From positions 76,017-140,016 of the forward strand of contig DATIHN010000016.1 in assembly GCA_035480635.1 (NCBI GenBank): a DNA stretch of 64,000 bases. Reading direction: 5' to 3'. The DNA is from Candidatus Saccharimonadales bacterium. Lineage in GTDB: Bacteria > Patescibacteriota > Saccharimonadia > UBA4664 > DATIHN01. The notes beneath the pieces were generated by a model, which was given only the letters and a program-made list of their open reading frames with translations, was not told the DNA's origin and did not search any database. This document shows, piece by piece, positions 9,208 to 64,000 of this stretch (the stretch's first letter is position 1; each line of letters opens with the position of its first letter). Made by a program: the position numbers and the translations under genes.

Positions 9208-10526
9208 ACTCCAGTACAGCTACTTGGCAGCTGCTCCCCGTTTTGGGCCTTGGTAAGCCAAGCCAGAGTGTCTTTATAGCTTTTTACCATAATGCTGTAA
9301 TGACTGGCATCGGGATAGGTTTGGATTTTGGCTGGCCCCGAACCGGCTCGACAAAGTAACGATAGGGCGTTGGTCTGCTGGTCGGGCAGGATAATATTAT
9401 CTTTTTGGCCCTGATTAATTAGTTTGGGCGTGGCCGTAGGTCCCGACCAGGACCGATTGGCCACCAAATCAGCCGCCAAATCGGGATAACTCGATGCTAG
9501 CGTAGAGGTTTTCAAAGCCGTTAAAAATTCCGGGGTGTAGACTTCTTCGGCTTTAGGCCAATATTTGACACTGTTGATGCAGTGTCCTAAGACGTCAGTT
9601 TTTAGAGTCGGGATCCACTTGGCTTGCAATATCGTATTAAGCGGAAAAGTCTGGTCGTAATAATCACTGTAGCTAACTAAAACATAGGGACCGAACCAAA
9701 CAATGTTTGCACCTCTGGCGATATCAGCCAAAGTTGTCGTAACATCGCTAACTGGCGCAAACGCCACCAGGCCTTTGATCTTTAGGTCTGGAGCATAAGA
9801 CGGTGCGATCTTATCAGCCCAAGCCACAGCCTGCCCACCCTGGGAATACCCAGCCAAGAACAGCCGGTTGCGGTCCAAATTTTTATAATCTCCCAGGTTG
9901 AAGGTTGCCCGAGCCGCATCCAAGACAGCTCGGCCCTCTAGTTCGCCCACCATGTAATGATGCAGCCGCGAACTATCGCGCATGCCTTCATAATCAGTAA
10001 TCACTACGGCATAGCCTTGGCCGGCATAAGCCGCCGCATGTGATTCATAGTTAGCCCAATTCGCTAAAGCTGGCACCTCTAGGCTGGCGGCGCATTCGTC
10101 GCCAATGCCGGTAGTTCCGGGTCCGAATGAGATTAGCGGGATTTTGCTAGATGTGTTGGTCCTTGGTAAATAGACCCGGGCGTAGAGGTCAATCTCCTGA
10201 CCTTGAGTATCAACACTGGTGTATTTTAGTAAGCGCTTGCTGATAGCGTTTTGAGCCGGCACGGTATCGGCACCGTAATTTTGTTTGGCCAGCGCATTCA
10301 CCTCCTCAACTGAATAATTCCGGATGACCTCCTGAGAAATTATTTTGCCGCCGGCGGGCTGATGAGAATGGCTAATTGGCAATATATCGCTAGGGGTTCT
10401 AAGAATCGAACGTTGTCCCAAGTAGACCCAGAGACCTAGTCCAATGACGATAATCAACAGTCCAGACAGCCAGTACTGGCGCTTGATGCGATTTCTGATT
10501 GATTTGAAAGTTATTTTTTTGCCCAT
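9204..10526 (-). CDS. membrane-anchored secreted alpha/beta hydrolase (secretory lipase-like)
   Basis: N-terminal TM/signal anchor. GYSQGG nucleophile elbow (LAGYSQGGQAVAWA). 440 aa. Confidence 0.6.
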   Translation of the reverse strand: MGKKITFKSIRNRIKRQYWLSGLLIIVIGLGLWVYLGQRSILRTPSDILPISHSHQPAGGKIISQEVIRNYSVEEVNALAKQNYGADTVPAQNAISKRLLKYTSVDTQGQEIDLYARVYLPRTNTSSKIPLISFGPGTTGIGDECAASLEVPALANWANYESHAAAYAGQGYAVVITDYEGMRDSSRLHHYMVGELEGRAVLDAARATFNLGDYKNLDRNRLFLAGYSQGGQAVAWADKIAPSYAPDLKIKGLVAFAPVSDVTTTLADIARGANIVWFGPYVLVSYSDYYDQTFPLNTILQAKWIPTLKTDVLGHCINSVKYWPKAEEVYTPEFLTALKTSTLASSYPDLAADLVANRSWSGPTATPKLINQGQKDNIILPDQQTNALSLLCRAGSGPAKIQTYPDASHYSIMVKSYKDTLAWLTKAQNGEQLPSSCTGV

Positions 10527-37236: not shown

Positions 37237-37322
37237 CTTATTATTCTATCAAACTGCTTGCGCTTTGCTTGACATTACGAAATCTGGAGTCATAATAAAG
37301 CATAAGAATTAAAAGAAACATT

Positions 37323-37910
37323 ATGCCAAAAACTAAAACCAAACCAAACGGATTCAATCTCGCGCGAAAGTTAAACTTTAGTAAGAGCCAGCTGGCCGCT
37401 ATCATTGCAGCCGGTGTGGCTATCGGCGGCTTTGTGGCTTATCAAACTTTTGCCGCCACAGTACCACCGTCAAATCTAAGGCAAACCATATCTGGTGGCG
37501 CTGGCGGAGGCGGTGTGACAACTATTAGCACATGGGTTATTAACACAGTTTCGGCCACTCCTTATGGGGCAGCCACACCAGCTCTTAACATGAAAAATTC
37601 TGATCCTCACTACTGGCAAACAGGCAATTGGAATTTTTCTACGGGGTTCAATAAAACATCCGACTACTTGAAGTCGCTAACAAGCGATGGGTGGCCCAAG
37701 TCAAACACGTTTCTTTGTGGTAATTCAAATAGCTACTTCTATGGCATGGGGCCACTGCAAACCCCCTACGGACCATTGTACTTTGGCCAAGTCTACCGGC
37801 TCTACAACAACAAGTGGCAAGTCAAATGGGCCAATTACAGCACTGTTACCAAAGGTTGTTCGACATCAACGAATTGGATGGACGTAACTCCTGGACCCGG
37901 GAACCTGTAA
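37323..37910 (+). CDS. secreted hypothetical protein, paralog A (conserved MPKTKTK leader)
   Basis: The N-terminal 45 aa are shared with the downstream gene at both protein and DNA level (first 22 nt identical). The C-terminus is Asn/Tyr/Trp-rich. Confidence 0.6.
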   Translation: MPKTKTKPNGFNLARKLNFSKSQLAAIIAAGVAIGGFVAYQTFAATVPPSNLRQTISGGAGGGGVTTISTWVINTVSATPYGAATPALNMKNSDPHYWQTGNWNFSTGFNKTSDYLKSLTSDGWPKSNTFLCGNSNSYFYGMGPLQTPYGPLYFGQVYRLYNNKWQVKWANYSTVTKGCSTSTNWMDVTPGPGNL

Positions 37911-37945
37911 TTCGATAATCCAGAAATAAGGAGGTTATTTACCTT

Positions 37946-38473
37946 ATGCCAAAAACTAAAACCAAATCGAACGGGTTAAATCTTACCAAGCGCTTAAACT
38001 TCAATAAGGGGCAGCTGATCGCTATCATTGTGGCTGGTGTGGTCATTGGCGGCTACGTGGCCTACAAAACCTTTGCGGCCGGTCCGGCCACAGTTACGGG
38101 CTGTAAAACTCGAGTTAATGACCCAACTTATGGGCCACTAATATATGTCCACTTTACGGTTCGAAAATATGACCCAGATATGAATATCGCAGTCGCTTAT
38201 AAAGCCGATAAGATTAAGACCTACAGTAACGGCTACGTTATTGATCGCTCGGGCAACTGGTCGATTATTCAGCAGAGCGGTTTTAACAGTAATAATCGAG
38301 CCTATATGAACGGTGTTGATGGCAGTGTTGTCGACGACCCCTACTGGGAAGTCGATCTATTTAAGCCTGGGTGGCATTGGGGGTCTTACGCTCACCATGT
38401 AAGTTGGTTACCGTTTTGCGGTACCAGTGGCTCGCCGAGGAACATCTACATCGACTGGGGTCATTCGACCTAG
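37946..38473 (+). CDS. secreted hypothetical protein, paralog B (conserved MPKTKTK leader)
   Basis: Same leader plus TM. Unrelated C-terminal domain. RBS AAGGAGG before the ATG. Confidence 0.6.
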   Translation: MPKTKTKSNGLNLTKRLNFNKGQLIAIIVAGVVIGGYVAYKTFAAGPATVTGCKTRVNDPTYGPLIYVHFTVRKYDPDMNIAVAYKADKIKTYSNGYVIDRSGNWSIIQQSGFNSNNRAYMNGVDGSVVDDPYWEVDLFKPGWHWGSYAHHVSWLPFCGTSGSPRNIYIDWGHST

Positions 38474-41721: not shown

Positions 41722-41847
41722 TCTATCCCCTTTTGTTGGTACGAACTTAGATAAGTTACTTTGATTATATTCGGTTTTTGTTCGGTTTGTAAAGAGTTTT
41801 TCTCAAATAAATTTCCCTCACTCGGGAAGGCATTCTAACTTCTCTCC

Positions 41848-41925
41848 CCACCAATTTTTTATGTAAGCTCTTATTTCTTACCCCTGTAATACTTTGTATG
41901 GCCGTCGATACAAAAAAATTGGTGG
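41848..41925 (+). repeat. H1 hairpin repeat, copy a (forward)
   Basis: ccaccaattttttatgtaagc…[~40-nt loop]…cgatacaaaaaaattggtgg. A 13-14-bp stem including a 6-7-bp A:T run. Confidence 0.7.
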
Positions 41926-41951
41926 GGCTTGTTTCTTTTCTAGATCATCTT

Positions 41952-42004
41952 GAGCAGATTGCTCAGTCTATATCTCCCCTTACTTAGTTCTTCGCAATCT
42001 GCTG
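41952..42004 (+). repeat. H2 hairpin repeat, copy a (forward)
   Basis: gagcagattgc…[31-nt loop containing ctcccc]…gcaatctgctg. A 10-bp stem. Confidence 0.7.
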
Positions 42005-42055
42005 TTTGGATTTAATAAATACACTCTTCTAGCTGAGGTCTGAATTACTCCATTT

Positions 42056-42108
42056 AGCAGGTTGTGAGGGGTTTGGTAGTGGGAGAAAGTAAGCGAACAA
42101 CCTGCTCC
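42056..42108 (+). repeat. H2 hairpin repeat, variant copy b (reverse orientation, compensatory stem changes)
   Basis: cagcaggttg…gtagtgggagaaag…caacctgctc. A-to-G and T-to-C changes on opposite arms keep the stem paired. Confidence 0.65.
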
Positions 42109-42130
42109 TATTGATCCAAAAGATAAACTC

Positions 42131-42213
42131 CCCAGCCCATTTTTTTGTATCGACTAAGTTAGTAGTCGTAATGGGAGTATGAAGAGTCAGCTTACACAAA
42201 AAATGGGCTGGGG
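42131..42213 (+). repeat. H1 hairpin repeat, copy b (reverse orientation); it ends 20 nt downstream of the rpf stop
   Basis: cccagcccatttttttgtatcgac…gcttacacaaaaaatgggctgg. The ~100-nt block 42113-42215 is nearly identical to 50150-50252. Confidence 0.7.
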
Positions 42214-42232
42214 GGAGAAGTTAGTACCTGGT

Positions 42233-43387
42233 TTAAATAAGCCCGAGCTTGACGGAGCAGACCGGCCAGGGCGACCAGCCACGGCGGGCCTGAACGACTT
42301 TGGCAATCGCATCTTGAGTCGCGGGATCAGCGTCGCTTGGCAAACCGGTGCCGCCGTTTGATTGCCAGGTACCCAGATCGAACTGGTAGGCGCCATAATA
42401 ACCATTGCCGCTGTTACGGGTATAATTATTACCTGTTTCACAAACCCGCAAACGATACCAAACATCATCCCGAATCTTGGTACCGACATGAATCACTCGA
42501 TTGACGGGATTCACCAGATTGGCCACATTCAAAACTTGGCGCTGAACCTCAATGCCATCGTGATAATTAATTTTATAGGTCACATCGCGGCCGCCAACGC
42601 TACCTGCTTCGACCACTCGGCTCTCGCCCTGGTACATCGAATCATCACGAACGGTCTGAATATGATTAGCTAGATCCTCATGTTTAGTTACAACGACTTC
42701 CGTCACCCGAGTGATGGTAATGTTTTCGCCCGGCACAATTTGATTGCTCAATGGCACCGAGGTCGTATCTTGCTCCCCCATCGGTATGTGCTTTTCTTGC
42801 AATAAGCCAGCCACCGTAGTGGCTTGGGTCCGCAGTTGTCTAGTGGCGCCGTCAACGCTCAAGACCACTGGTTTGGCCCGTTTGACTACGACCTTTTCGC
42901 CCACCGTCCCATCGCCAACGAAGTTGGTCACGAAAGCATCGCTAAATTGGTCCTCGGGGTAGGTGTTAATCCCGGCATCCCCCGTGATCAAGCGCGGACT
43001 GCCATGCGGAGAATCAACCATCTTTTCGGTCGTGCCGTCTTGAACTAAAACTGGTCGGGCTCGGTACACGTTGATATTAAAGAAGCCAGTTGGAATTTGA
43101 GTGTTAGCAGCCGGCTCTACCAGATCGTGCGGTCCCAGTTTGGAATTTGTTCGCGCCAAAACTTCGCCCACGGTACTAGCGTCGGTCGTAAAGATGCGCT
43201 TTTGGCCATCCGCAAAGTAGCTAACCACCTTGGCCGAGTCGGCGTAGGCGCGACCCGTGGTGGGTAGTTTTCCGGCTAAGATTGCGTAAGTAACGATAAT
43301 GATGAGAATGCCGACCAAACCGTAGATGCGTGGTGCTGTCGGCACCCGGCCCCGGTGGGACCGATTGGTGTTGCCTAAAATCGACAA
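42233..43387 (-). CDS. resuscitation-promoting factor, RpfB-like (TM anchor, DUF348-like repeats, G5 domain, C-terminal Rpf transglycosylase-like domain)
   Basis: C-terminal WYRLRVCETGNNYTRNSGNGYYGAYQFDLGTW is the Rpf lysozyme-like signature with the catalytic Glu. TTG start. Confidence 0.75.
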   Translation of the reverse strand: MSILGNTNRSHRGRVPTAPRIYGLVGILIIIVTYAILAGKLPTTGRAYADSAKVVSYFADGQKRIFTTDASTVGEVLARTNSKLGPHDLVEPAANTQIPTGFFNINVYRARPVLVQDGTTEKMVDSPHGSPRLITGDAGINTYPEDQFSDAFVTNFVGDGTVGEKVVVKRAKPVVLSVDGATRQLRTQATTVAGLLQEKHIPMGEQDTTSVPLSNQIVPGENITITRVTEVVVTKHEDLANHIQTVRDDSMYQGESRVVEAGSVGGRDVTYKINYHDGIEVQRQVLNVANLVNPVNRVIHVGTKIRDDVWYRLRVCETGNNYTRNSGNGYYGAYQFDLGTWQSNGGTGLPSDADPATQDAIAKVVQARRGWSPWPVCSVKLGLI

Positions 43388-43594: not shown

Positions 43595-43960
43595 ATGAAG
43601 TTGACTGATGCAACCGAAGCCGTCGAAATCATCGAGGGTCGTGGCCCAGAAGAGATTGAACGTGTCATCGACAAGCACCTAGGTACAGCGCCACCGCTCT
43701 ACTACTGCAATGATCAGATCAGTGTCTTAGTTGTGGCTCGTACCAGTCAACCTGATGACGGACGCACGTGGCACCCAGCCAAAACATCCCGATCCGATGA
43801 GAAGACACAGTCGGCGAGGGTTGCCTCTGCCATCATCTCTGAGTTCAGAGCCCAACCAGAGGAATTTTTCTTCGAAGCCAAGGCCGAGGAAGTAGCTGGG
43901 AGTCCAGCACTCTGTTTTACCCGTCGGAACGTCGCAAAAGATCTGCGGGTCGTTGAATAA
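43595..43960 (+). CDS. small hypothetical protein, paralog 1 (121 aa from MKLTDATEAV)
   Basis: Shares …GTAPPLYYCNDQISVLVVARTSQPDDGRTWH with the downstream gene (…RTAPLRFAIDRELGVLVTEAAGNEAPDDSRQWV). Confidence 0.5.
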   Translation: MKLTDATEAVEIIEGRGPEEIERVIDKHLGTAPPLYYCNDQISVLVVARTSQPDDGRTWHPAKTSRSDEKTQSARVASAIISEFRAQPEEFFFEAKAEEVAGSPALCFTRRNVAKDLRVVE

Positions 43961-44009
43961 CCCGCTTACCACGAGGAATCCGCCTCGGCGGTAGGCGGGT
44001 TTCTCATTT
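43961..44009 (+). terminator. intrinsic terminator, copy 1 of a duplicated 49-nt sequence
   Basis: cccgcttacc…ggtaggcggg stem followed by tttctcattt. Nearly identical sequence (one mismatch) at 44786-44835. Confidence 0.6.
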
Positions 44010-44010
44010 G

Positions 44011-44038
44011 TTGACAAAACTCGTGTTTATGATAGAAT
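44011..44038 (+). promoter_or_regulatory. strong sigma70 promoter (TTGACA-16-TGaTAGAAT, extended -10)
   Basis: Consensus -35, TG motif and a -10 matching 5 of 6 consensus positions. AAGGAGG RBS then GTG at 44085. Confidence 0.6.
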
Positions 44039-44500: not shown

Positions 44501-44785
44501 ATGACCGATGCGCCCAGCGATGACGACCTGACGACACAAGAACGCGAGCTGCTAGCCGCCCTGCTCTACGGCTCAACCGAAGAGAAAGCTCTGGCCTTAA
44601 GAGCACTCGGCGTCATCCCGGCCGAGGAACTATTAGATGAGTTCGGCAAGCTGACAGACGAGCAAAAGGCTGTCGTCATTGACAGAGCAATTTTCTTGCG
44701 CTACGGCCCGACCGGCATGAACGATGCGGAGGCCATCGTCGCTGCCATGCAAGAGTGGCACGATGGCAAGCTCAAGCTCCCCTAA
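44501..44785 (+). CDS. small acidic helical protein (94 aa, MTDAPSDDDL…)
   Basis: Start placed at the ATG immediately after the upstream stop. The longer ORF-track version (from 44387) would overlap the preceding gene in another frame. Confidence 0.45.
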   Translation: MTDAPSDDDLTTQERELLAALLYGSTEEKALALRALGVIPAEELLDEFGKLTDEQKAVVIDRAIFLRYGPTGMNDAEAIVAAMQEWHDGKLKLP

Positions 44786-44835
44786 CCCGCTTACCACGAG
44801 GAATCCGCCTCGCCGGTAGGCGGGTTTCTCATTTT
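44786..44835 (+). terminator. intrinsic terminator, copy 2 of the duplicated sequence
   Basis: Same hairpin plus T-tract as at 43961-44009. Confidence 0.6.
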
Positions 44836-45394
44836 ATGACAACAGAAACTTTTTGATGAACCCGATCTTGAACGTCAAAGTATAGGCGATTGAAAAAGCA
44901 TGCCCTCTGGTTCTAACCCGCAAATCAGCTGCGCCAGGGACGGTGGCAACGCTTGGATCAACGGTATTATCGCTGAGTGGCCTAATGGTCAGTAATTTTT
45001 TGGCTAAATTTTCATCTTCACTTAGATACTGATCGGCTATTTTGGCAGCCGTTAGAAAGGCCGGACTGCGCTTTTGCATGGTAACTGGGTTGAGATAATT
45101 GCTGTCCAGTACACCACAAATGCTGACGATCCGTTGTGTTAATTCTGGATTCCTGGCCGCTAGAATGATAGTCGCACTAGCCCCGGCACTGGCACCTACT
45201 ACACCAATCAGGTTCCGGCAGCCCTCCGCCGCAGCCAGCAATTTTTGATACTTGGGTTCAAAATCTCCGCCATCCTCCCAGGCTAATTCGCACACATGCA
45301 GCCGCACTCCGTACAATCGCCAGAGTGGCCTAAGCCAGATGTAGAGACGTTCGTTGTTGGTGCCGAGGCCAGGGATGAGGATAACGTCGCGCAT
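44834..45394 (-). CDS. alpha/beta hydrolase (esterase/thioesterase-like)
   Basis: GASAG nucleophile elbow (IGVVGASAGASATI). 186 aa. Start abuts the pcrA stop. Confidence 0.55.
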   Translation of the reverse strand: MRDVILIPGLGTNNERLYIWLRPLWRLYGVRLHVCELAWEDGGDFEPKYQKLLAAAEGCRNLIGVVGASAGASATIILAARNPELTQRIVSICGVLDSNYLNPVTMQKRSPAFLTAAKIADQYLSEDENLAKKLLTIRPLSDNTVDPSVATVPGAADLRVRTRGHAFSIAYTLTFKIGFIKKFLLS

Positions 45395-47506
45395 CTAGAC
45401 TTTGGTAATCGGAGCGAAGCTCAGGCTTAGTTTTTTGACACCCAAATGAGCAAAGGCGGCTGTCAGCTCATCACCATCGACGCTGACCACGATGCCCTCA
45501 CCAAATTTGTTGTGGCGGATTTTATCGCCGGCCTGAAAGGATTTGTGAACTGGTTCGAGTTTAGGCACTTCAACTTCTTGGGCCGTTTGGGAGCGAGTCA
45601 GCTCCGGTGGAATATCGAGCAAAAAGCGCGACGGCGGGTTGTGGCTGGTGTTGCCATAAAGCAAGCGCGAATTGGCATGAATCAAATAAAGCCGCTCGCG
45701 AGCCCTCGTCATGCCGACGTAGCAAAGCCGGCGTTCCTCCTCCAGCTCGGCTAAATCAATTTGGCTGCGGCTATGGGGGAAAACGTTTTCTTCCATGCCG
45801 GTCATGAAAACGATGGGAAATTCCAGCCCTTTAGCGGCATGCAGCGTCATCAACGTCACGGCATTGGTATCGCTAGAATAATTATCAAGATCCGAGATTA
45901 GCGCGATCTCTTCCAAAAAGCCTTCCAGGCCAATATCGTCGTAGGTTTGAGCCACACTGATTAATTCTTTGACGTTTTCGACCCGCTCCGCGGCTTGAAT
46001 GGTGCCATCGTCCAGCCATTCCAGGTAGCCACTGCGTTTGATGACGAGCTCCAAAAACTGGCTGGTCAGCATGCCTTCACTGGGCTCCTGCAAACCCCGA
46101 ATCAACAAGGCAAATTGCTTGAAGGCTTGGACCGCCCTTGGCGTCAGCCCGGTGATTTGATCAGCACTTTCCAGGGCCTCGAGCAAAGGTAGCCCGCTGC
46201 TATTCTTGAAAGCAATCAATCGTTCCAAACTTTTATCACCCAACCCCCTGGGTGGTAAATTAACGATGCGGTTGAAGTTGATCAGATCCTCGGGTTGATA
46301 AATGAAGCGCAAATAGCCCATGACGTCCTTGATCTCACGGCGCTCGTAGAACCGAGTACCGCCGACGATTTTGTAGGGCAAGTTGTTGCGTAAAAAAGCT
46401 TCCTCCAGTGAACGCGATTGAGCATTGGTCCGATAAAGCACCGCAAAATCGGCCAGCTCGCGCTTTTCTTCGATAATCAGCCGATTGACCTGCAGCACGA
46501 TGGCCTCGCCCTCTTGAGCCTCGTTGTAAACTTGCTCGATGACTACGCCGTGGCCGCGATCGTTTTCGGTCCAAAGCTCTTTATGGGAACGTTGTTGGTT
46601 TTTGGTAATGATGGCGTGCGCTGCATCCAGAATGTTTTTGGACGAGCGATAATTCTGCTCGAGTTTAATGACGGCAGCTTCGGGATAATCTTTTTCGAAA
46701 TCGAGAATGTTTTGAAAGTTGGCCCCCCGCCAAGAATAAATTGATTGCCAATCATCCCCCACTACGCAGATATTGCGGTGGGTCGCGGCTAGGAGCTTAG
46801 CAAAAATATATTGGGCCCGATTGGTGTCTTGATACTCATCAATCAGGATGTATTTGAACTGATCCTGATATTTTTTGAGCAGTTCGGAATTGTGGCGAAA
46901 GGCCTTAACGACTTCAAAGATTAGATCGTCAAAGTCCAACGCGCCGGCATCGCGCAACAGCTTTTGATAAACTGTGTAGACGCGTGCGGCCGTGGTTTGG
47001 GCCGGCCCGTAGGCCACGGCTTTGTAGGCGGCCGCATCAATTAGTTCGTTTTTGGCACTCGAAATCAAACCGGCAATCATCGGCGGTGCAAACTGCTTTT
47101 CGCTAATGCCCAGGCTGCGCATGGCAGCTTTAGTGGCAGCTAGCGCATCTTGTTGGTCGTAGATGATGAAGCTGGCTGAGAGCCCCAGATCTTTGGCTTC
47201 TCGGCGCAGAATCCGTACGCAAATCGAATGAAAGGTGCCCATAAACGGCAGATAGTTGCGATTATCGGGGTGCTTGCCTAGTAGCTCCAACACGCGCTTA
47301 CGCATCTCCCCGGCCGCTTTGTTCGTAAAAGTCACGGCCAAAATATTCAGCGGGCTGATGTGACAATCGGCCACCAAATAGGCGATCCGGTGGGTCAGGG
47401 CCTTGGTTTTGCCGCTCCCCGCCCCGGCCAACATCAAAACTGGGCCTTCCGTTGTTTGAACGGCCTGGCGTTGGGGTGGGTTTAGGTCTGTTAGTAAATC
47501 TGGCAC
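45395..47506 (-). CDS. pcrA: ATP-dependent DNA helicase PcrA/UvrD
   Basis: LNPPQRQAV…GPVLMLAGAGSGKT (Q motif plus Walker A). UvrD motifs throughout. 703 aa. GTG start. Confidence 0.9.
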   Translation of the reverse strand: MPDLLTDLNPPQRQAVQTTEGPVLMLAGAGSGKTKALTHRIAYLVADCHISPLNILAVTFTNKAAGEMRKRVLELLGKHPDNRNYLPFMGTFHSICVRILRREAKDLGLSASFIIYDQQDALAATKAAMRSLGISEKQFAPPMIAGLISSAKNELIDAAAYKAVAYGPAQTTAARVYTVYQKLLRDAGALDFDDLIFEVVKAFRHNSELLKKYQDQFKYILIDEYQDTNRAQYIFAKLLAATHRNICVVGDDWQSIYSWRGANFQNILDFEKDYPEAAVIKLEQNYRSSKNILDAAHAIITKNQQRSHKELWTENDRGHGVVIEQVYNEAQEGEAIVLQVNRLIIEEKRELADFAVLYRTNAQSRSLEEAFLRNNLPYKIVGGTRFYERREIKDVMGYLRFIYQPEDLINFNRIVNLPPRGLGDKSLERLIAFKNSSGLPLLEALESADQITGLTPRAVQAFKQFALLIRGLQEPSEGMLTSQFLELVIKRSGYLEWLDDGTIQAAERVENVKELISVAQTYDDIGLEGFLEEIALISDLDNYSSDTNAVTLMTLHAAKGLEFPIVFMTGMEENVFPHSRSQIDLAELEEERRLCYVGMTRARERLYLIHANSRLLYGNTSHNPPSRFLLDIPPELTRSQTAQEVEVPKLEPVHKSFQAGDKIRHNKFGEGIVVSVDGDELTAAFAHLGVKKLSLSFAPITKV

Positions 47507-48513: not shown

Positions 48514-48810
48514 TCAGGCTGGCTTATAGGCCGTATGTCTGGCGGCGTATCTTCGTCCTCGAGCGGTCAGGCAATAGGCGTTCGACATGTACTTGATGTC
48601 ACGGATGACCTTTTGATCGTGCCAATCCCCGGCCCGAATATGAAGGCGCAGCTCTAGGGTCGTGATCCAGCAGCGAGCGCGGAACCTAGAGATGCTGAAC
48701 TCCTTTCGCAGTTCGCTGGCTGTCCAATGCTGATCTTCGCTACTCCACTGCTGCAGCTGCCGATAAAGGTTGATCCGCTGGGCTGTCGTCATTATTGAAC
48801 CCCTTTTCAA
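48514..48810 (-). CDS. hypothetical small basic protein
   Basis: ORF only (98 aa). A possible internal start MTTAQRINLY. Confidence 0.35.
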   Translation of the reverse strand: MKRGSIMTTAQRINLYRQLQQWSSEDQHWTASELRKEFSISRFRARCWITTLELRLHIRAGDWHDQKVIRDIKYMSNAYCLTARGRRYAARHTAYKPA

Positions 48811-48914
48811 GCGAATGCATCGATGGTTCTACCCACCCAGAACGCCAACATGATGCGCTCATGCTAATAAATTTGCAAGACTTTCAGACGGCAACCAACC
48901 TAAGCCATTTTCCC

Positions 48915-48993
48915 TAGCCCATTTTTTATGTAAGCTCTCATTTCCTACTACCATAACCATTCGTGCTTATGTCGATACAAAAAAATGGGCTAG
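48915..48993 (+). repeat. H1 hairpin repeat, copy c (forward)
   Basis: tagcccattttttatgtaagc…gtcgatacaaaaaaatgggcta. The outer stem covaries relative to copy a (ccaccaa/ttggtgg becomes agcccat/atgggct). Confidence 0.7.
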
Positions 48994-49017
48994 GGTGTAT
49001 ATCTTTTAGATCATCTG

Positions 49018-49070
49018 GAGCAGATTGCTCAGTTTATTTCTCCCCTTACCTAATCCTTCGCAATCTGCTG
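49018..49070 (+). repeat. H2 hairpin repeat, copy c (forward); it ends 30 nt downstream of the tpiA stop
   Basis: gagcagattgctcagtttatttctccccttacctaatccttcgcaatctgctg. Confidence 0.7.
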
Positions 49071-49100
49071 TCTGGATAATTGAAGATGGAGAGTAGCGAA

Positions 49101-49847
49101 TTAGTGCTGGGCGGCTTCGACGATCCGAGCAAATTTGCTAGCGTTCACGCTAGCCCCACCCACCAGCAAACCATCGACCTCCCCCAGGCTCAGAAAGGCC
49201 GCAGCATTATCACCATCAACGCTGCCGCCATAGAGCAAGCGAATTTGGGCGGCTGATTCGCCGAATAGTTCAGTGATGGTTTGATGAATCAATCTGGCTA
49301 CCGGAATAACATCGTCCGGCCGGGCAAAATTACCGGTGCCAATTGCCCAAATCGGTTCGTAAGCCACTACGACTTGATCTAAATCTTCTTTGCTGACAAA
49401 GTGCAAACCGACCGTCAACTGATCCACGACAACCCGGCTGGTTAGCTCCTCACTACGTTCCAGCAACGTTTCGCCAACGCACAAAATTGGTTGGATGCGA
49501 TTGCGCAAGGCCGCCGCCACTTTTTTGGCCACCAATAAATTATCCTCGCCAAAAACCTGACGCCGCTCGGAGTGGCCGATGATGGCATAATCGACCAGGC
49601 CCTTGAGCATGGCGGCCGAGGTTTCGCCGGTGAAGGCGCCATTGTCCTCGAAATAAAGATTTTGCGCGCCCAGTTTGAATTTTTTGTCATCGAGCTCACG
49701 CGACACCGGGTAAACATCGAGCATGGGTGGGCACAGCACGACTTCGGCCTGGCCGGCATGGACCATTTTGGCCAGTTTTTGGTAATAAGTACTAGCCGCC
49801 CCTGGGCTAAAGTGTTCCTTCCAATTGCCAACAATCAGTTTTTTCAT
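49101..49847 (-). CDS. tpiA: triosephosphate isomerase
   Basis: MKKLIVGNWKEHF N-terminus. Catalytic-His region IIGHSERR. YGGS near the C-terminus. Confidence 0.92.
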   Translation of the reverse strand: MKKLIVGNWKEHFSPGAASTYYQKLAKMVHAGQAEVVLCPPMLDVYPVSRELDDKKFKLGAQNLYFEDNGAFTGETSAAMLKGLVDYAIIGHSERRQVFGEDNLLVAKKVAAALRNRIQPILCVGETLLERSEELTSRVVVDQLTVGLHFVSKEDLDQVVVAYEPIWAIGTGNFARPDDVIPVARLIHQTITELFGESAAQIRLLYGGSVDGDNAAAFLSLGEVDGLLVGGASVNASKFARIVEAAQH

Positions 49848-49925
49848 ATCACCTCGATTGTTTGTATCATAAGCGTTTTGGGCTGAAGTATCAATTTCCC
49901 AATCACTCGTGGTCAGATTTCATGA

Positions 49926-49985
49926 TTTCTCTCCCCACCCAGCTTCATCCGCTCCCACCCTATCTCCTCCTATCCTATCTGCCCT
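49926..49985 (+). repeat. pyrimidine-rich (C/T) tract preceding M3
   Basis: ttctctccccacccagcttcatccgctcccaccctatctcctcctatcctatctgccc. Similar C/T-rich tracts occur at 63750-63800 and 41812-41850. Confidence 0.5.
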
Positions 49986-49994
49986 GCGTCTTTT

Positions 49995-50070
49995 ACCGTT
50001 CGGCCTTAAGACTGGCTCGCGAGTTATCGTCGCTCGCTAATAGGACGAACAGTCTTTCGGCTCGAACGGT
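49995..50070 (+). repeat. M3 hairpin repeat, copy a
   Basis: accgttcggccttaagactg…[loop with the palindrome gctcgcgag]…cagtctttcggctcgaacggt. Outer 8-bp stem and inner 7-bp stem. Identical apart from a few substitutions to 63818-63893. Confidence 0.7.
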
Positions 50071-50094
50071 GTATTTTCTCATTAAAATCCATAT

Positions 50095-50156
50095 AGCAGA
50101 TTGCGAAGATGTAAGTAATGGGAGAGATTGACTGAGCAATCTGCTCAATTTGAACC
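50095..50156 (+). repeat. H2 hairpin repeat, copy d (reverse orientation)
   Basis: cagcagattgcgaagatgtaagtaatgggagagattgactgagcaatctgctc. Confidence 0.7.
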
Positions 50157-50169
50157 AAAAGATAAACTA

Positions 50170-50250
50170 CCCAGCCCATTTTTTTGTATCGACTAAGTTA
50201 GTAATCGTAATGGGAGTAGGAAGAGAGAGCTTACACAAAAAATGGGCTGG
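50170..50250 (+). repeat. H1 hairpin repeat, copy d (reverse orientation); it ends 10 nt downstream of the pgk stop
   Basis: cccagcccatttttttgtatcgac…gcttacacaaaaaatgggctgg. Confidence 0.7.
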
Positions 50251-50259
50251 AAGAAGAGC

Positions 50260-51423
50260 CTACTTTTTGATTAGCGGCTCCAAGCCGGGTAATTTATTAC
50301 CAGCCATTAATTCTAGTCCAGCTCCACCACCAGTGGAAACAAAGCTAAAATCATCGGCCATATGAATTTTATCCAGGAATGCCGCCGTATCGCCACCGCC
50401 AATAATGCTGGTGGCCGAAGTTGCCGCAATAGCCCGGGCCAGTTTTTTGGAACTTTTGGCAAACTGGTTAAATTCAGCCACACCGACCGGGCCATTCCAG
50501 ATAATAGTGCCGGCTGACTTGATAGCTTGAGTGGCTTTGGCTGTAGTGGCCGGACCGATATCGGCAATGATGTCGCCAGTTGATACTTCGTCCAAGTTTT
50601 TAACGGTAGCCTTAGCGCGCGGTCCTAGTGAGCTCGCTACTACCACGTCTACTGGCAAAATTAGGCTGACTTTGCGCTTCGTGGCTTCGGCGCTAATATC
50701 ACGCGTCAACTGCATCTGGTCCTTTTCATAGAGACTCTTACCGACTTCCCCGCCGTCGGCCGCAATGAAAGTGTTGGCCATAGCACCGCCGATTAACATG
50801 CCGTCAACTTTTTTGAGCAGGTTTTCAATCAAGGGAATTTTAGTTGAAATTTTGGCTCCACCAACGATGGCAAATAGTGGTCGTTTGGGATTATCCAGAG
50901 CCGAAGTGATAGCCTCGACTTCCTTTTGGACTAAAAAACCAGCGGCCGCGGGTAGCAGTTTGGGTAAACCGACGACTGAAGCGTGAGAGCGATGCATAAC
51001 GGTAAAATCATCATCAACATAAGCGTCACCTAAAGCTGCCAGGGACTTAGCAAACTTAGCATCATTGGCTTCCTCGCCCTTTTTCAGGCGCAAGTTTTCG
51101 AGCATGATGACATGACCTGGTTCCATATCGGCAATAGTTTGCTCGACTGCGGGTCCGGTTGAATCCGGCACAAAAGCCACGGCTCGTTTGAGCAAGCGCG
51201 ACAGCACTGGCGCAACCGGAGCCAAACTTTCCCCCTCCTTACTCAAATGACTAATTAAAACGACTTTGGCTTGGTGTTTAATTAAATATTGAATGGTTGG
51301 CAGAGCGGCTCGCAGGCGCTGGGTGTCTTTGACTTTGCGCTTTTCGATTGGGACGTTCAAAGCCGCTCTGAGCAAGACCACCCGGCCCCGGACATCTAGA
51401 TCTTCAACCGATTTAAGCCGCAT
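50260..51423 (-). CDS. pgk: phosphoglycerate kinase
   Basis: VLLRAALNVP region and nucleotide-binding motifs (…GGGDTAAF…). 387 aa. Confidence 0.92.
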   Translation of the reverse strand: MRLKSVEDLDVRGRVVLLRAALNVPIEKRKVKDTQRLRAALPTIQYLIKHQAKVVLISHLSKEGESLAPVAPVLSRLLKRAVAFVPDSTGPAVEQTIADMEPGHVIMLENLRLKKGEEANDAKFAKSLAALGDAYVDDDFTVMHRSHASVVGLPKLLPAAAGFLVQKEVEAITSALDNPKRPLFAIVGGAKISTKIPLIENLLKKVDGMLIGGAMANTFIAADGGEVGKSLYEKDQMQLTRDISAEATKRKVSLILPVDVVVASSLGPRAKATVKNLDEVSTGDIIADIGPATTAKATQAIKSAGTIIWNGPVGVAEFNQFAKSSKKLARAIAATSATSIIGGGDTAAFLDKIHMADDFSFVSTGGGAGLELMAGNKLPGLEPLIKK

Positions 51424-61595: not shown

Positions 61596-63689
61596 TTACT
61601 CTCCTTTCTTCAGTTTAGAGGGTTTTGCCGCCGGCAACGTTAGACTAAAGGTCGTGCCCTTCCCCGGCTCTGATGACTCCAGGCGAATTAATCCGCCCAT
61701 CCCTTCCATCAGCATTTTGGAAATATAGAGGCCGAGACCGGTCCCATGAGTCGTGTCCCTGGCACTCCCAGGCTTGAGACTCCCCGGCGTCGCTCGCGAG
61801 AGAATGTTTTCTTCGGCCTGCTGAAACTTTTTAAACAGCAGATTGTGTCTCTCTGGCGGAATGCCTTCGCCGGTATCGGTCACAAAAATGCGAACGTAGT
61901 CAGGATGCGATTCCAGCCGCATAGTAATGCTACCGCTGTGGGTAAAGGTTACAGCATTTGAGAGCAAATTAATCAAAACTTGTCGCAGCTTGATTTGATC
62001 AGCCCTGGCCACAATTTTACCTCGACCATCCAGAATCTCCAATTTCAGTTCAAGACCTTGTTGACCAACAGTATGCTGATATTCCTTAACCAACCCTTGT
62101 AGCAGTTCTGGCAAATCAACCGCCGTGAGCTCAAATTTAATGCGATTTTGCTCTAGTCTCGAGGTATCTAGGAAATCGTTGACCATTTGGATCAGGCGTC
62201 GGCTAGAATCATAAATGTCTTTGGTCATACCGGCTAGCTCCGGATTTTTAACTTTCGGAATGACGTGCTCAGCGATCATGGCGGCGTTGCCCATGATGAC
62301 AGTTAGCGGCGTTCTAAGTTCGTGCGAGGCGATCGAAAAGAACTCATCCCGAGCTCGCTTCAGGCTGCGTTCAAGAGTGATGTCTTCGAATAAAATGATA
62401 CTCCCAATCACCGGCGCTTGACCCGGTGATTCAGTCACCGGTGCCACATAGATCCGCAAGAATTTCTCTAATAGTGGGACCTCGCCCAAACTATGGCTGG
62501 TGATGGTGTTAATAGCATTGCTGATGGTTTGCTCCAACTTAATTTTGGGCATGAGTCGTTCGAGCTCGGCTAGTTTTACCTCCTTGGCTCGTTTCGGGTC
62601 GGCAAATAGAATTCGTCTGGCGGCGTCATTAACCATGGTGATATTTAGGTTGGCATCGGTCATGATGAAACCGATGTTAAAAGCATTAATGGAAGCTCTC
62701 AGCCTGGTATGGGCTTCTTCTAATTGCTGCCGGTTTTGGCGGAAGTATTGGCTAAGCAGTAGGGCAATCTGGCCAAACTCGCTGGTACTGGTGCCGAGTT
62801 CTTCGAGATTATTAGGGTCCTTAGTAGCAAGCGTTCGAGATATTTTATTCAAAGGGTTAGTCACGTAGCGAGTCAAAAACCAGAGTAGGGCTAGTAGTAC
62901 CGGGATAACGATGATAACGAAGTTTTTCACGCGCTGGGAATTCTGGGTATAGAGTTCACGAATGCTTGGAGCATCAGCTGTAGCCTGTAAGCGGGCGATG
63001 GTTTGGCCATTCATATCGCCTAGAGTCTTGTCGATGACGACCTGGCCCGTGCTCGGATCAGGCATGGTTGGGTTATCGTTGCCGCTCAGTAAATTGACGT
63101 TACTTTTTGAATCGTTACCCAGGCGTTGGCGAAATTCAGCGTTGTAGAGCCGGCCGACAAAGAAGTAGCCTTGGGGCACGGTTTGTCGGTTCGGGTCATT
63201 AGATGGGTGGATGGTGGCAGCTCGGATCTCGACGATGCCTGAAGATGTCCGCACAAAAAAGTGGGCTAGGCGCTGTTTAGTAAACACTTGAGCGATTTCG
63301 GCTTTCGATAACGGCAAGTCGATGGCCGAGACATTCGAACCATTATTCTGATAAACCTTGGTGCCATCGGTCCGAAAGACCCAAATAGCATCGACCTGAT
63401 AGGTGCTAAGAGCAGTATCCAGGTTGTCTTGAGCAAATTTTTTGGTGGGTTTTTTGACGAAAGCCACCATATCATCCCAATAGGTGTAGTCGGTTGCCAA
63501 GTTGGCCTGGGGTTCACCATCCAAGCGGTAAACGGCCGAAAACAGCCGTTGGCGTTCATCGACGACGTCTTGGTATAGAGTCTCGGTGTGGCGCTTTTCA
63601 CTCTGTGATAAGACGAATAGACCGATGGCTGCGGCAGCTAGCAGAGCAAGCATCAGCAGTATGACGCGATATTGGGTTTTGATTTTCAC
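61596..63689 (-). CDS. sensor histidine kinase with a large extracytoplasmic sensor domain
   Basis: N-terminal TM, ~250-aa periplasmic domain and a second TM. HisKA H-box SHELRTPLT. HATPase_c G-boxes (DTGEGI, GTGLGL). Confidence 0.85.
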   Translation of the reverse strand: MKIKTQYRVILLMLALLAAAAIGLFVLSQSEKRHTETLYQDVVDERQRLFSAVYRLDGEPQANLATDYTYWDDMVAFVKKPTKKFAQDNLDTALSTYQVDAIWVFRTDGTKVYQNNGSNVSAIDLPLSKAEIAQVFTKQRLAHFFVRTSSGIVEIRAATIHPSNDPNRQTVPQGYFFVGRLYNAEFRQRLGNDSKSNVNLLSGNDNPTMPDPSTGQVVIDKTLGDMNGQTIARLQATADAPSIRELYTQNSQRVKNFVIIVIPVLLALLWFLTRYVTNPLNKISRTLATKDPNNLEELGTSTSEFGQIALLLSQYFRQNRQQLEEAHTRLRASINAFNIGFIMTDANLNITMVNDAARRILFADPKRAKEVKLAELERLMPKIKLEQTISNAINTITSHSLGEVPLLEKFLRIYVAPVTESPGQAPVIGSIILFEDITLERSLKRARDEFFSIASHELRTPLTVIMGNAAMIAEHVIPKVKNPELAGMTKDIYDSSRRLIQMVNDFLDTSRLEQNRIKFELTAVDLPELLQGLVKEYQHTVGQQGLELKLEILDGRGKIVARADQIKLRQVLINLLSNAVTFTHSGSITMRLESHPDYVRIFVTDTGEGIPPERHNLLFKKFQQAEENILSRATPGSLKPGSARDTTHGTGLGLYISKMLMEGMGGLIRLESSEPGKGTTFSLTLPAAKPSKLKKGE

Positions 63690-63749
63690 CTCGCGCTCAC
63701 CATAAGCATTATAAATAGTTTACCACCTGGACGGCCTGATACGGAACTT

Positions 63750-63800
63750 CTTACCCCCCAGCACTATTCTCCCGCTCCCACTCAATCTACCCCCACGCCT
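63750..63800 (+). repeat. pyrimidine-rich tract (cluster 4)
   Basis: cttaccccccagcactattctcccgctcccactcaatctacccccacgcc. Confidence 0.45.
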
Positions 63801-63817
63801 TTTGCCCAGCGTCTTTT

Positions 63818-63893
63818 ACCGTTCGGCCTTAAGACTGGCTCGCGAGTTATCGTCGCTCGCTAATAGGACGTACAGTCTTTCGGCTCGAACGGT
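63818..63893 (+). repeat. M3 hairpin repeat, copy b
   Basis: Matches 49995-50070 apart from a few substitutions. Confidence 0.7.
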
Positions 63894-63914
63894 TATATTT
63901 ATTAAACATTCATA

Positions 63915-63966
63915 CAGCAGATTGCGAAGAACAAAGTAGGGGGAGATATTAACTGAGCAATCTGCT
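63915..63966 (+). repeat. H2 hairpin repeat, copy e (reverse orientation)
   Basis: cagcagattgcgaagaacaaagtagggggagatattaactgagcaatctgctc. It is followed by tagatgatctag and the start of an H1 arm (…cccaccaa) truncated by the window edge. Confidence 0.65.
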
Positions 63967-64000
63967 CTAGATGATCTAGAAAAAGACACCCACCCACCAA

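Follow-up and report, generated by a model that had tools for sequence, protein, structure and literature searches.

The contig stretch of Candidatus Saccharimonadales analyzed here (64,000 nucleotides, in the following called the window) contains a family of structured repeats that brackets the gene tpiA and fills the spacer between it and its upstream neighbor pgk. The repeats are built from two hairpin modules, designated H1 and H2, which together form a unit (U1 to U5), and from a third hairpin module, M3, that is attached to some of the units. They constitute a new family of a well-known kind, namely a bacterial interspersed hairpin repeat, found in this case in a genome-reduced lineage. 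Probably the family is a lineage-restricted, non-coding and modular selfish element, similar to transposable elements of the miniature inverted-repeat type (MITEs), BOX elements or repetitive extragenic palindromes (REPs), that has spread within this genome. The bracket would then be the product of two independent insertions, and the opposite orientation of the two units around tpiA would be incidental.

The main evidence comes from the comparison with related genomes. In the window both genes are encoded on the minus strand: tpiA (49101-49847, 248 amino acids, Pfam TIM with an E value of 1e-78) occupies its ancestral place downstream of pgk (50260-51423, 387 amino acids, Pfam PGK with an E value of 4e-137), which ends with the stop codon TAG at 50260-50262. 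The spacer between them (49848-50259) comprises 412 nt. Six relatives with TpiA sequences 71-79% identical to the one of the window were compared, and in all six tpiA is syntenic after pgk and repeats are missing. Their spacers measure 54 nt in L020 (TpiA 79% identical), 50 nt in L007 (77%), 37 nt in L010/L011 (71%) and 50 nt in L021 (71%); the 575 nt found in L009 (74%) stem from an unrelated GIY-YIG gene. As five relatives have only 37-54 nt and no units, the spacer of 412 nt is a derived state that was made by insertion. An earlier note on this DNA, made from the letters alone, had already described the spacer as unusually long and as filled by structured repeats, and both statements are borne out. 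A long spacer without the repeat, named there as a counter-observation, is not shared by these relatives.

The position of the insertion can be given precisely. The TAG of pgk is ancestral, L007 and L009 having it at the same codon, and every genome compared has kept the block AAAAC(C)GCTTATGATA...AGGTGA-ATG immediately ahead of tpiA. This native proximal upstream block (49848-49894, minus strand) lies outside the repeat and carries the ribosome-binding site AGGTGA together with a promoter-like TTGATA-17-TATGAT; its part GCTTATGAT is conserved in all relatives compared. Judged by this sequence comparison, the insertion is located right after the ancestral pgk stop codon and has left the promoter-like and ribosome-binding block of tpiA intact. 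Both the repeat insertion of the window and the GIY-YIG insertion of L009 lie exactly between the pgk stop codon and the conserved tpiA block, and the arrival of an unrelated gene at the identical point marks a tolerated insertion site. The L009 spacer (9426-10000) holds the GIY-YIG open reading frame (ORF) on the opposite strand (9580-9960) as well as repeated 'tcatcctgag...cgaaggatct' motifs; being bounded by the pgk stop TAG and the conserved AAAACCGCTTATGATA block, it represents an independent mobile-element hit at the same spot. Elsewhere in the window, comparison with L007 shows the pair of U2 and U1 to be cleanly inserted, with about 440 nt added, again between a stop codon (that of an rpf-like gene) and a conserved promoter block.

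The arms of the inverted repeat around tpiA (48916-49077 and 50087-50248) are 162 nt long each and 80% complementary, with 1009 nt between them and a longest perfectly identical run of 21 nt. This confirms the bracket of inverted H1+H2 units reported in the earlier note; the forward unit, which was placed there 30 nt downstream of the tpiA stop codon (49101-49103), ends at about 49079 and is thus only 21 nt away. The unit after tpiA, U3, is inverted relative to the tpiA transcript. Its counterpart U4 follows pgk directly in sense orientation, and the stop codon of pgk supplies its outermost 3 nt.

The window was examined for repeat copies together with 14 kb of extra flank (about 78 kb in all), as were about 68 kb from the relatives. 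Repeat finding over the whole window, profile searches with nhmmer and two covariance models (R1 for H1 and R2 for H2) gave concordant results. The 78 kb contain five H1+H2 units, distributed over three intergenic sites, and M3 is attached to two of them; altogether the family makes up about 1.5% of this DNA. U1 (41836-42017, plus strand) and U2 (42041-42223, minus strand) form a back-to-back inverted pair in which U2 comes after the rpf-like gene (stop codon at 42233-42235) and is sense-oriented. U3 (48901-49079, plus strand) is composed of H1 (48912-48995), a T-rich linker (48996-49017) and H2 (49018-49070), reaches 117.5 bits with R1 and 96.2 bits with R2, and shows TAA at both edges. U4 (50082-50262, minus strand) contains H1 (50171-50250), a U-rich linker (50147-50170) and H2 (50094-50146) and scores 124.2 and 96.4 bits, respectively. 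U5 (63903-64000, minus strand) is cut by the end of the window, so that only H2 and the start of H1 are included; it is complete in L012 (9606-9792), where it starts at the TAA stop codon of an upstream histidine kinase gene. The core hairpin of the first M3 copy (49995-50070, minus strand) is about 99% identical to that of the second (63818-63893), which belongs to an M3 at 63745-63893 on the minus strand, upstream of another histidine kinase gene (61596-63689). Both M3 copies carry a polypurine tail in the minus-strand reading; at the tpiA locus the tail covers 49923-49994 and is C/T-rich on the plus strand. No further or degenerate copies were revealed by the profiles and the covariance models in the window, the 14 kb of flank or the 68 kb from relatives, and the latter contain neither a unit nor an M3.

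A unit measures about 180 nt; with M3 the element reaches about 340 nt, and the U2/U1 pair about 390 nt. H1 (84 nt) has a stem of 18-20 bp (CCAGCCCAUUUUUU.../...AAAAAAUGGGCUGG); in its loop of about 45 nt, GTAAGCT and GTCGATAC are invariant. It is followed in all five units by a conserved U-rich tract (TTTATCTTTT and variants). H2 (53 nt) has a stem of 10 bp (GAGCAGATTGC/GCAATCTGCT) that closes an invariant TCTCCC..TAC loop (CUCCC..UAC in RNA). Each unit shows TAA or TAG 10-11 nt ahead of the H1 stem, this triplet being the stop codon of the upstream gene in U4 and U5, and a TAA is found 7-11 nt past H2. Three arrangements can be distinguished. Between pgk and tpiA as well as between the two histidine kinase genes the order is gene stop, unit, M3, tail and next gene; after the rpf-like gene the stop codon is followed by a unit, 33 nt, an inverted unit and a promoter; and after tpiA there is a solo inverted unit. 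In U4 the loops of H1 and H2 have the decamer CTCCCATTAC in common, and the loops of the other units again contain CTCCC..TAC. This shared motif, anti-Shine-Dalgarno-like on one strand and GGGAG on the other, suggests by its sequence either an old duplication linking both hairpins or a common binding motif.

The repeats are neither a product of chance nor an assembly artefact. The core motifs of H1 and M3 match four and two times, respectively, compared with no match expected in shuffled sequences, and the H2 motif matches eight times compared with 1.7 expected. The same DNA is present in the independent metagenome-assembled genome (MAG) GCA_964637125.1 at NCBI and in four Logan assemblies (SRR9179559-63), with zero differences within the repeats. 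The TpiA protein encoded in the window is 100% identical to one annotated from a Candidatus Saccharimonadales MAG. The window, the MAG and the four Logan contigs agree in one order, i.e. M3, tail, tpiA, U3 and downstream genes. The Logan contigs break off within H1, 39 nt past pgk, and within the M3 core, so the pgk side is unresolved in them; such breaks of short-read contigs in H1 and M3 indicate multi-copy sequence. Over 20.7 kb the window and the MAG show six differences, all of them within 52 nt (47363-47414) in the 5' part of a uvrD/pcrA-like gene, possibly owing to a small patch of recombination or to a segment that varies between strains.

The family hairpins fold better than their shuffled counterparts, with z values between -2.4 and -6.1. 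At the tpiA locus the predicted energies are -26.4 kcal/mol for H1 (z -5.1), -14.5 kcal/mol for H2 (z -2.4) and -35 kcal/mol for M3 (z -3.7), so that the three stable hairpins which the earlier note had proposed for the inter-cistronic RNA are predicted here as well. Compensatory double changes were detected at 8 of the 35 predicted H1 and H2 pairs, a count that derives from five copies only. Examples are CCAGCCC/GGGCUGG versus CCACCAA/UUGGUGG in H1 and GCAGAUUGC/GCAAUCUGC versus GCAGGUUGU/ACAACCUGC in H2. On this comparative evidence the pairing of both hairpins is maintained via compensatory changes. The base of the H1 stem is G+C-rich (the CCAGCCC/GGGCUGG pairing, which is extendable), and then UUUAUCUUUU-like tracts follow in all five units. 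Since the U-rich tract always follows, H1 is terminator-like. The three units that directly follow a stop codon (at the histidine kinase gene upstream of U5, at the rpf-like gene and at pgk) are all sense-oriented, which would place H1 and its U-tract in the transcript, and the remaining two of the five units are antisense to the local genes.

The modules do not have a common genealogy. U2 and U4 are 92% identical in H1 and 69% in H2, and U1 and U4 are 90% identical in H2 and 68% in H1. The M3 cores are about 99% identical, and the H2 and H1 modules attached to them reach 69-86%. As the module genealogies disagree, the family behaves as a set of separable modules that are subject to exchange. 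The close match between U4 and U2 can be seen at 50150-50252 and 42111-42213, where 95 of 103 positions are identical; the earlier note had recognized this likeness correctly but put the partner segment at 42113-42215, a register in which 32 of 103 positions agree. No conserved small ORF exists in the units, all frames containing stop codons and an indel of 1 nt between copies shifting the frame, and a coding role was rejected on this ground.

These data are best reconciled by the following scenario. An element of about 340 nt (H1, H2, M3 and tail) would have landed just after the ancestral pgk stop codon and upstream of the promoter-like and ribosome-binding block of tpiA, and a solo H1-H2 unit in opposite orientation would have landed 21 nt past the tpiA stop codon, tpiA itself remaining unmoved. 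The copies may have been mobilized in trans by a transposase encoded elsewhere, possibly with a preference for insertion beside TAA or TAG, as suggested by the left ends of all five units. Sense-oriented H1 with its U-tract would act as a terminator or as a hairpin that protects the 3' end. In consequence the expression of tpiA would be partly detached from that of pgk and would depend on the proximal promoter that tpiA has kept. The sequence hints at TAR as target or at an IS200/IS605-like layout with subterminal hairpins, no terminal inverted repeat (TIR) and no target duplication. With respect to the properties of MITEs, the elements are small (below about 600 bp) and non-coding, and they are dispersed and differ in presence and absence from the relatives (five units at three loci).

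Several observations weigh against the selfish-element interpretation. No target-site duplication (TA or TNA) was found on comparison with the empty sites of L007, and the TAA or TAG triplets at the edges of the U2/U1 pair are part of its inverted termini. Solo units do not show a clear TIR, and in the M3-bearing elements the right end resembles the left terminus only marginally above shuffled sequences. In particular, the outer part of the tail at the tpiA locus (49923-49943, about 20 nt) resembles the inverted left terminus of the unit and may represent a degenerate TIR, and the tail end shares a 13-nt exact match (TTCTCTCCCCACC) with the U1 terminus that is marginal if compared to shuffles. 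The U2/U1 pair has inverted arms of 165 nt. The boundaries of the units are insecure, as some homology continues beyond the right-hand TAA. No transposase or recombinase gene was found in the 78 kb, and mobility is deduced from just five units in this DNA. The pattern, plasmid, phage and protein searches described below gave no related copy or source element. The near-identity of the M3 cores beside much less similar flanking modules is not accounted for by simple neutral decay. As regards a terminator role, intrinsic terminators do not typically have a loop as long as that of H1 (about 45 nt), and a consensus terminator scanner made no call on H1. How the elements move can only be inferred, the TIR being marginal and a target duplication absent.

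Other explanations of the same features have to be weighed. The bracket could be an RNA device in which the inverted units of a read-through transcript pair over about 160 bp, the resulting stem encloses tpiA and RNase III cleaves it after the manner of rRNA processing stalks or Correia hairpins, whereby a monocistronic tpiA mRNA is released or destabilized. The co-fold of the two unit RNAs reaches -209.5 kcal/mol versus -95.6 kcal/mol for the units folded apart, and in the minimum-free-energy structure predicted for the 1383-nt transcript the two arms are joined by 145 long-range pairs. The window encodes an RNase III (1906-2595), and binding and cleavage by this enzyme are known for Correia elements (PMC2649163). 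Nevertheless we consider such a device unlikely. It is based on predicted folds, and the local H1 and H2 hairpins would form first during transcription; H1 is terminator-like, so that read-through to the distal arm is doubtful. Moreover, units also occur singly at the histidine kinase locus and paired without a gene between them, and the bracket therefore looks incidental. Much the same doubt applies to the proposal that M3, together with the C/U-rich sequence flanking it, functions independently as an RNA, either a cis-leader on the minus strand or a small RNA on the plus strand, with H1 and H2 as mere neighbors. The small-RNA version would combine a C/U-rich seed of anti-Shine-Dalgarno type with a stable hairpin and a tail rich in U, and on the plus strand a T-rich run follows the hairpin. 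The M3 cores are far more similar than the adjoining modules, and both copies share one orientation and lie a short way upstream of the start of tpiA and of the histidine kinase gene, respectively. However, recent gene conversion explains their near-identity equally well, the two copies preclude covariation analysis, and the two downstream genes are functionally unrelated. Furthermore, M3 is absent at the same loci in the relatives, no Rfam match was obtained at E<=10, and exact-pattern scans of JGI metagenomes and viral contigs did not reveal a related sequence; on balance a function as RNA seems improbable. Even lower is the likelihood that both ideas hold together, i.e. that an RNase III-processed stem of about 160 bp provides a maturation of glycolytic mRNA reminiscent of rRNA operons and that M3 is a portable regulatory RNA delivered upstream of genes in a genome-reduced episymbiont.

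It is very unlikely that the units are native terminators copied between sites by recombination or gene conversion and not transposable elements. H1 and its U-tract stand right after stop codons in all sense-oriented copies, the modules are mosaic, and the window contains another duplicated terminator hairpin (43958-44017 and 44783-44842). On the other hand, the units are oversized for terminators, with two to three hairpins over 180-340 nt, and two of the five are antisense to local genes. The spacers of the relatives are short and hold nothing homologous at these sites, which means de novo arrival at three unrelated loci and makes ectopic conversion without flanking homology fail as an explanation. 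The earlier note had further considered that the arms could be the ends of a composite element carrying tpiA or could mediate inversion of the tpiA segment. Inverted arms of 162 nt around a segment of 1 kb fit such ideas in principle, and the gene has its own promoter-like site, so an inverted segment would be viable. Both proposals are nonetheless extremely unlikely. Because tpiA follows pgk in every relative, all of them repeat-free, it was not carried in by the repeats and is not the cargo of a composite transposon; its upstream block is conserved across the insertion, neither a transposase nor an adjacent recombinase gene is found nearby, and units exist singly or back-to-back elsewhere. 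Inversion is unsupported, at least as more than a minor subpopulation, as all six assemblies show a single orientation and arms that are 80% identical with no more than 21 identical bases in a row are a poor substrate for homologous (RecA-type) recombination. Finally, diversity-generating retroelements, retrons, CRISPR arrays and attC sites were rejected as readings, as a reverse transcriptase, A-specific variation, regular spacing and an integrase are all lacking.

Compared with these alternatives the interpretation as a selfish repeat family remains the probable one, and databases and literature were searched for its kin. With Rfam 15 at the gathering threshold the whole window gave only three tRNAs, and at E<=10 the region 48800-50300 gave only spurious hits to miRNA precursors. 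An exact-pattern scan for H2 in 185,579 species-representative genomes yielded one match, in Oceaniserpentilla sp. 4NH20-0058 (NZ_BAABWE010000011.1; L006 204-288, minus strand), where the hairpin lies just downstream of a dnaJ-like ORF. It has the H2 arms GAGCAGATTGCTCAG ... CTTCGCAATCTGCTC and reaches 28 bits with R2 (E value 2e-4). Its loop differs and it was rejected as a family member; convergence and distant relatedness are both possible. Scans with the H2 pattern gave zero matches in JGI metagenomes and in viral contigs, and the patterns of M3 and H1 gave zero in viral contigs. A single match of the M3 stem pattern in JGI metagenomes lies inside a high-GC coding region and was dismissed as a chance match. 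The whole spacer had no blastn match among plasmids and phages, and the translation of the only long open frame across M3 had none among called proteins. A literature search on Saccharibacteria and Patescibacteria found no report of MITE- or REP-like repeats.

Repeats with modular or terminator-like hairpins are documented from other bacteria, including BOX and SPRITE (PMC3049150), Correia elements (PMC2649163) and those covered by a review of MITEs (PMC10969869). BOX of Streptococcus pneumoniae (boxA-boxB-boxC; PMC3049150) is similar in being non-coding and intergenic and in consisting of separable modules that are combined variously. It also shares extensive predicted structure, the lack of an associated transposase and of an evident target-site duplication, and a likely effect on co-transcribed genes. 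BOX differs in its phylum (Firmicutes versus Patescibacteria/Saccharibacteria), and the units described here have no tandem boxB-like array and are made of long hairpins with compensatory changes. SPRITE of pneumococcus (PMC3049150) is a dispersed repeat downstream of coding sequences with an unusually long stem and a subsequent T-rich tract, and H1 followed by TTTATCTTTT resembles it; the present units add H2 and sometimes M3, have the long H1 loop and are in two of five cases antisense to their neighbors. The likeness to BOX and SPRITE, the latter also from another phylum, is architectural; a similarity in sequence to BOX was not noted, no direct comparison with BOX or SPRITE sequences having been made, and Rfam gave no hit. 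Among proteobacterial elements, REP/BIME and REPIN are likewise extragenic palindromes after stop codons and between cistrons in alternating orientation, and the U2/U1 pair resembles a REP doublet. REP and BIME have roles in the protection of mRNA 3' ends and in attenuation and are mobilized by RAYT transposases. No RAYT gene was found in the 78 kb, and the size of the REP unit (20-40 nt versus about 180 nt with two distinct hairpins here) rules out an assignment to REP. Correia elements of Neisseria (CREE, NEMIS; PMC2649163) are also small and non-autonomous, their inverted arms give rise to long transcript hairpins that are substrates of RNase III, they can alter the expression of adjacent genes, and their presence or absence differs between related genomes, as is the case here. 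Correia elements have 26-bp TIRs and a TA target duplication, neither of which is evident in the present family. PATEs derived from IS200/IS605 are comparable in their subterminal hairpins near both ends, the lack of a clear TIR and of a target duplication and insertion beside a short conserved motif (TAA or TAG here). The hairpins described here are much longer than the ends of IS200/IS605, no TnpA or TnpB is encoded nearby and the right boundary is uncertain, so this similarity is a lead only. Classical MITEs require a TIR and a target-site duplication; the family shows no such duplication and, apart from the inverted arms of the U2/U1 pair, at best a marginal TIR.

Some features of the surroundings may be added. 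Between U3 and a glyoxalase gene there is an ORF of 98 amino acids (48514-48810, minus strand) with its own terminator-like hairpin (48488-48465). It is missing at this place in L007 and L020, and an ORF of 94 amino acids in L010 is distantly similar to it (26% identity, E value 3e-4); this stretch is a variable small-gene slot adjoining tpiA. The duplicated terminator mentioned above is a direct repeat of 60 nt on the plus strand whose two copies are 95% identical and each start at the TAA with which a small plus-strand ORF ends. They fold into a hairpin of -29 to -33 kcal/mol followed by TTTCTCATTT, and their sequence is unrelated to H1, H2 and M3. Another direct repeat, of 43 nt (37318-37360 and 37941-37983, 88% identical), marks where two paralogous ORFs in tandem (37323-37910 and 37946-38473) start, both of which begin with MPKTKTKPNG.

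No general principle is changed by this repeat family; its importance would rise if RNase III processing around tpiA or a function of M3 proved true. In practice such repeats break short-read assemblies of this organism and inflate signals of unusual intergenic regions. Saccharibacteria and other bacteria of the candidate phyla radiation have small, streamlined genomes with short intergenic spacers. That a structured and apparently proliferating repeat is found in one of them means that streamlined genomes still tolerate selfish DNA, and the place where it is tolerated is exactly after stop codons and ahead of the promoter of the next gene. At the locus described here the repeats may thereby uncouple the expression of a normally tight pair of glycolytic genes.

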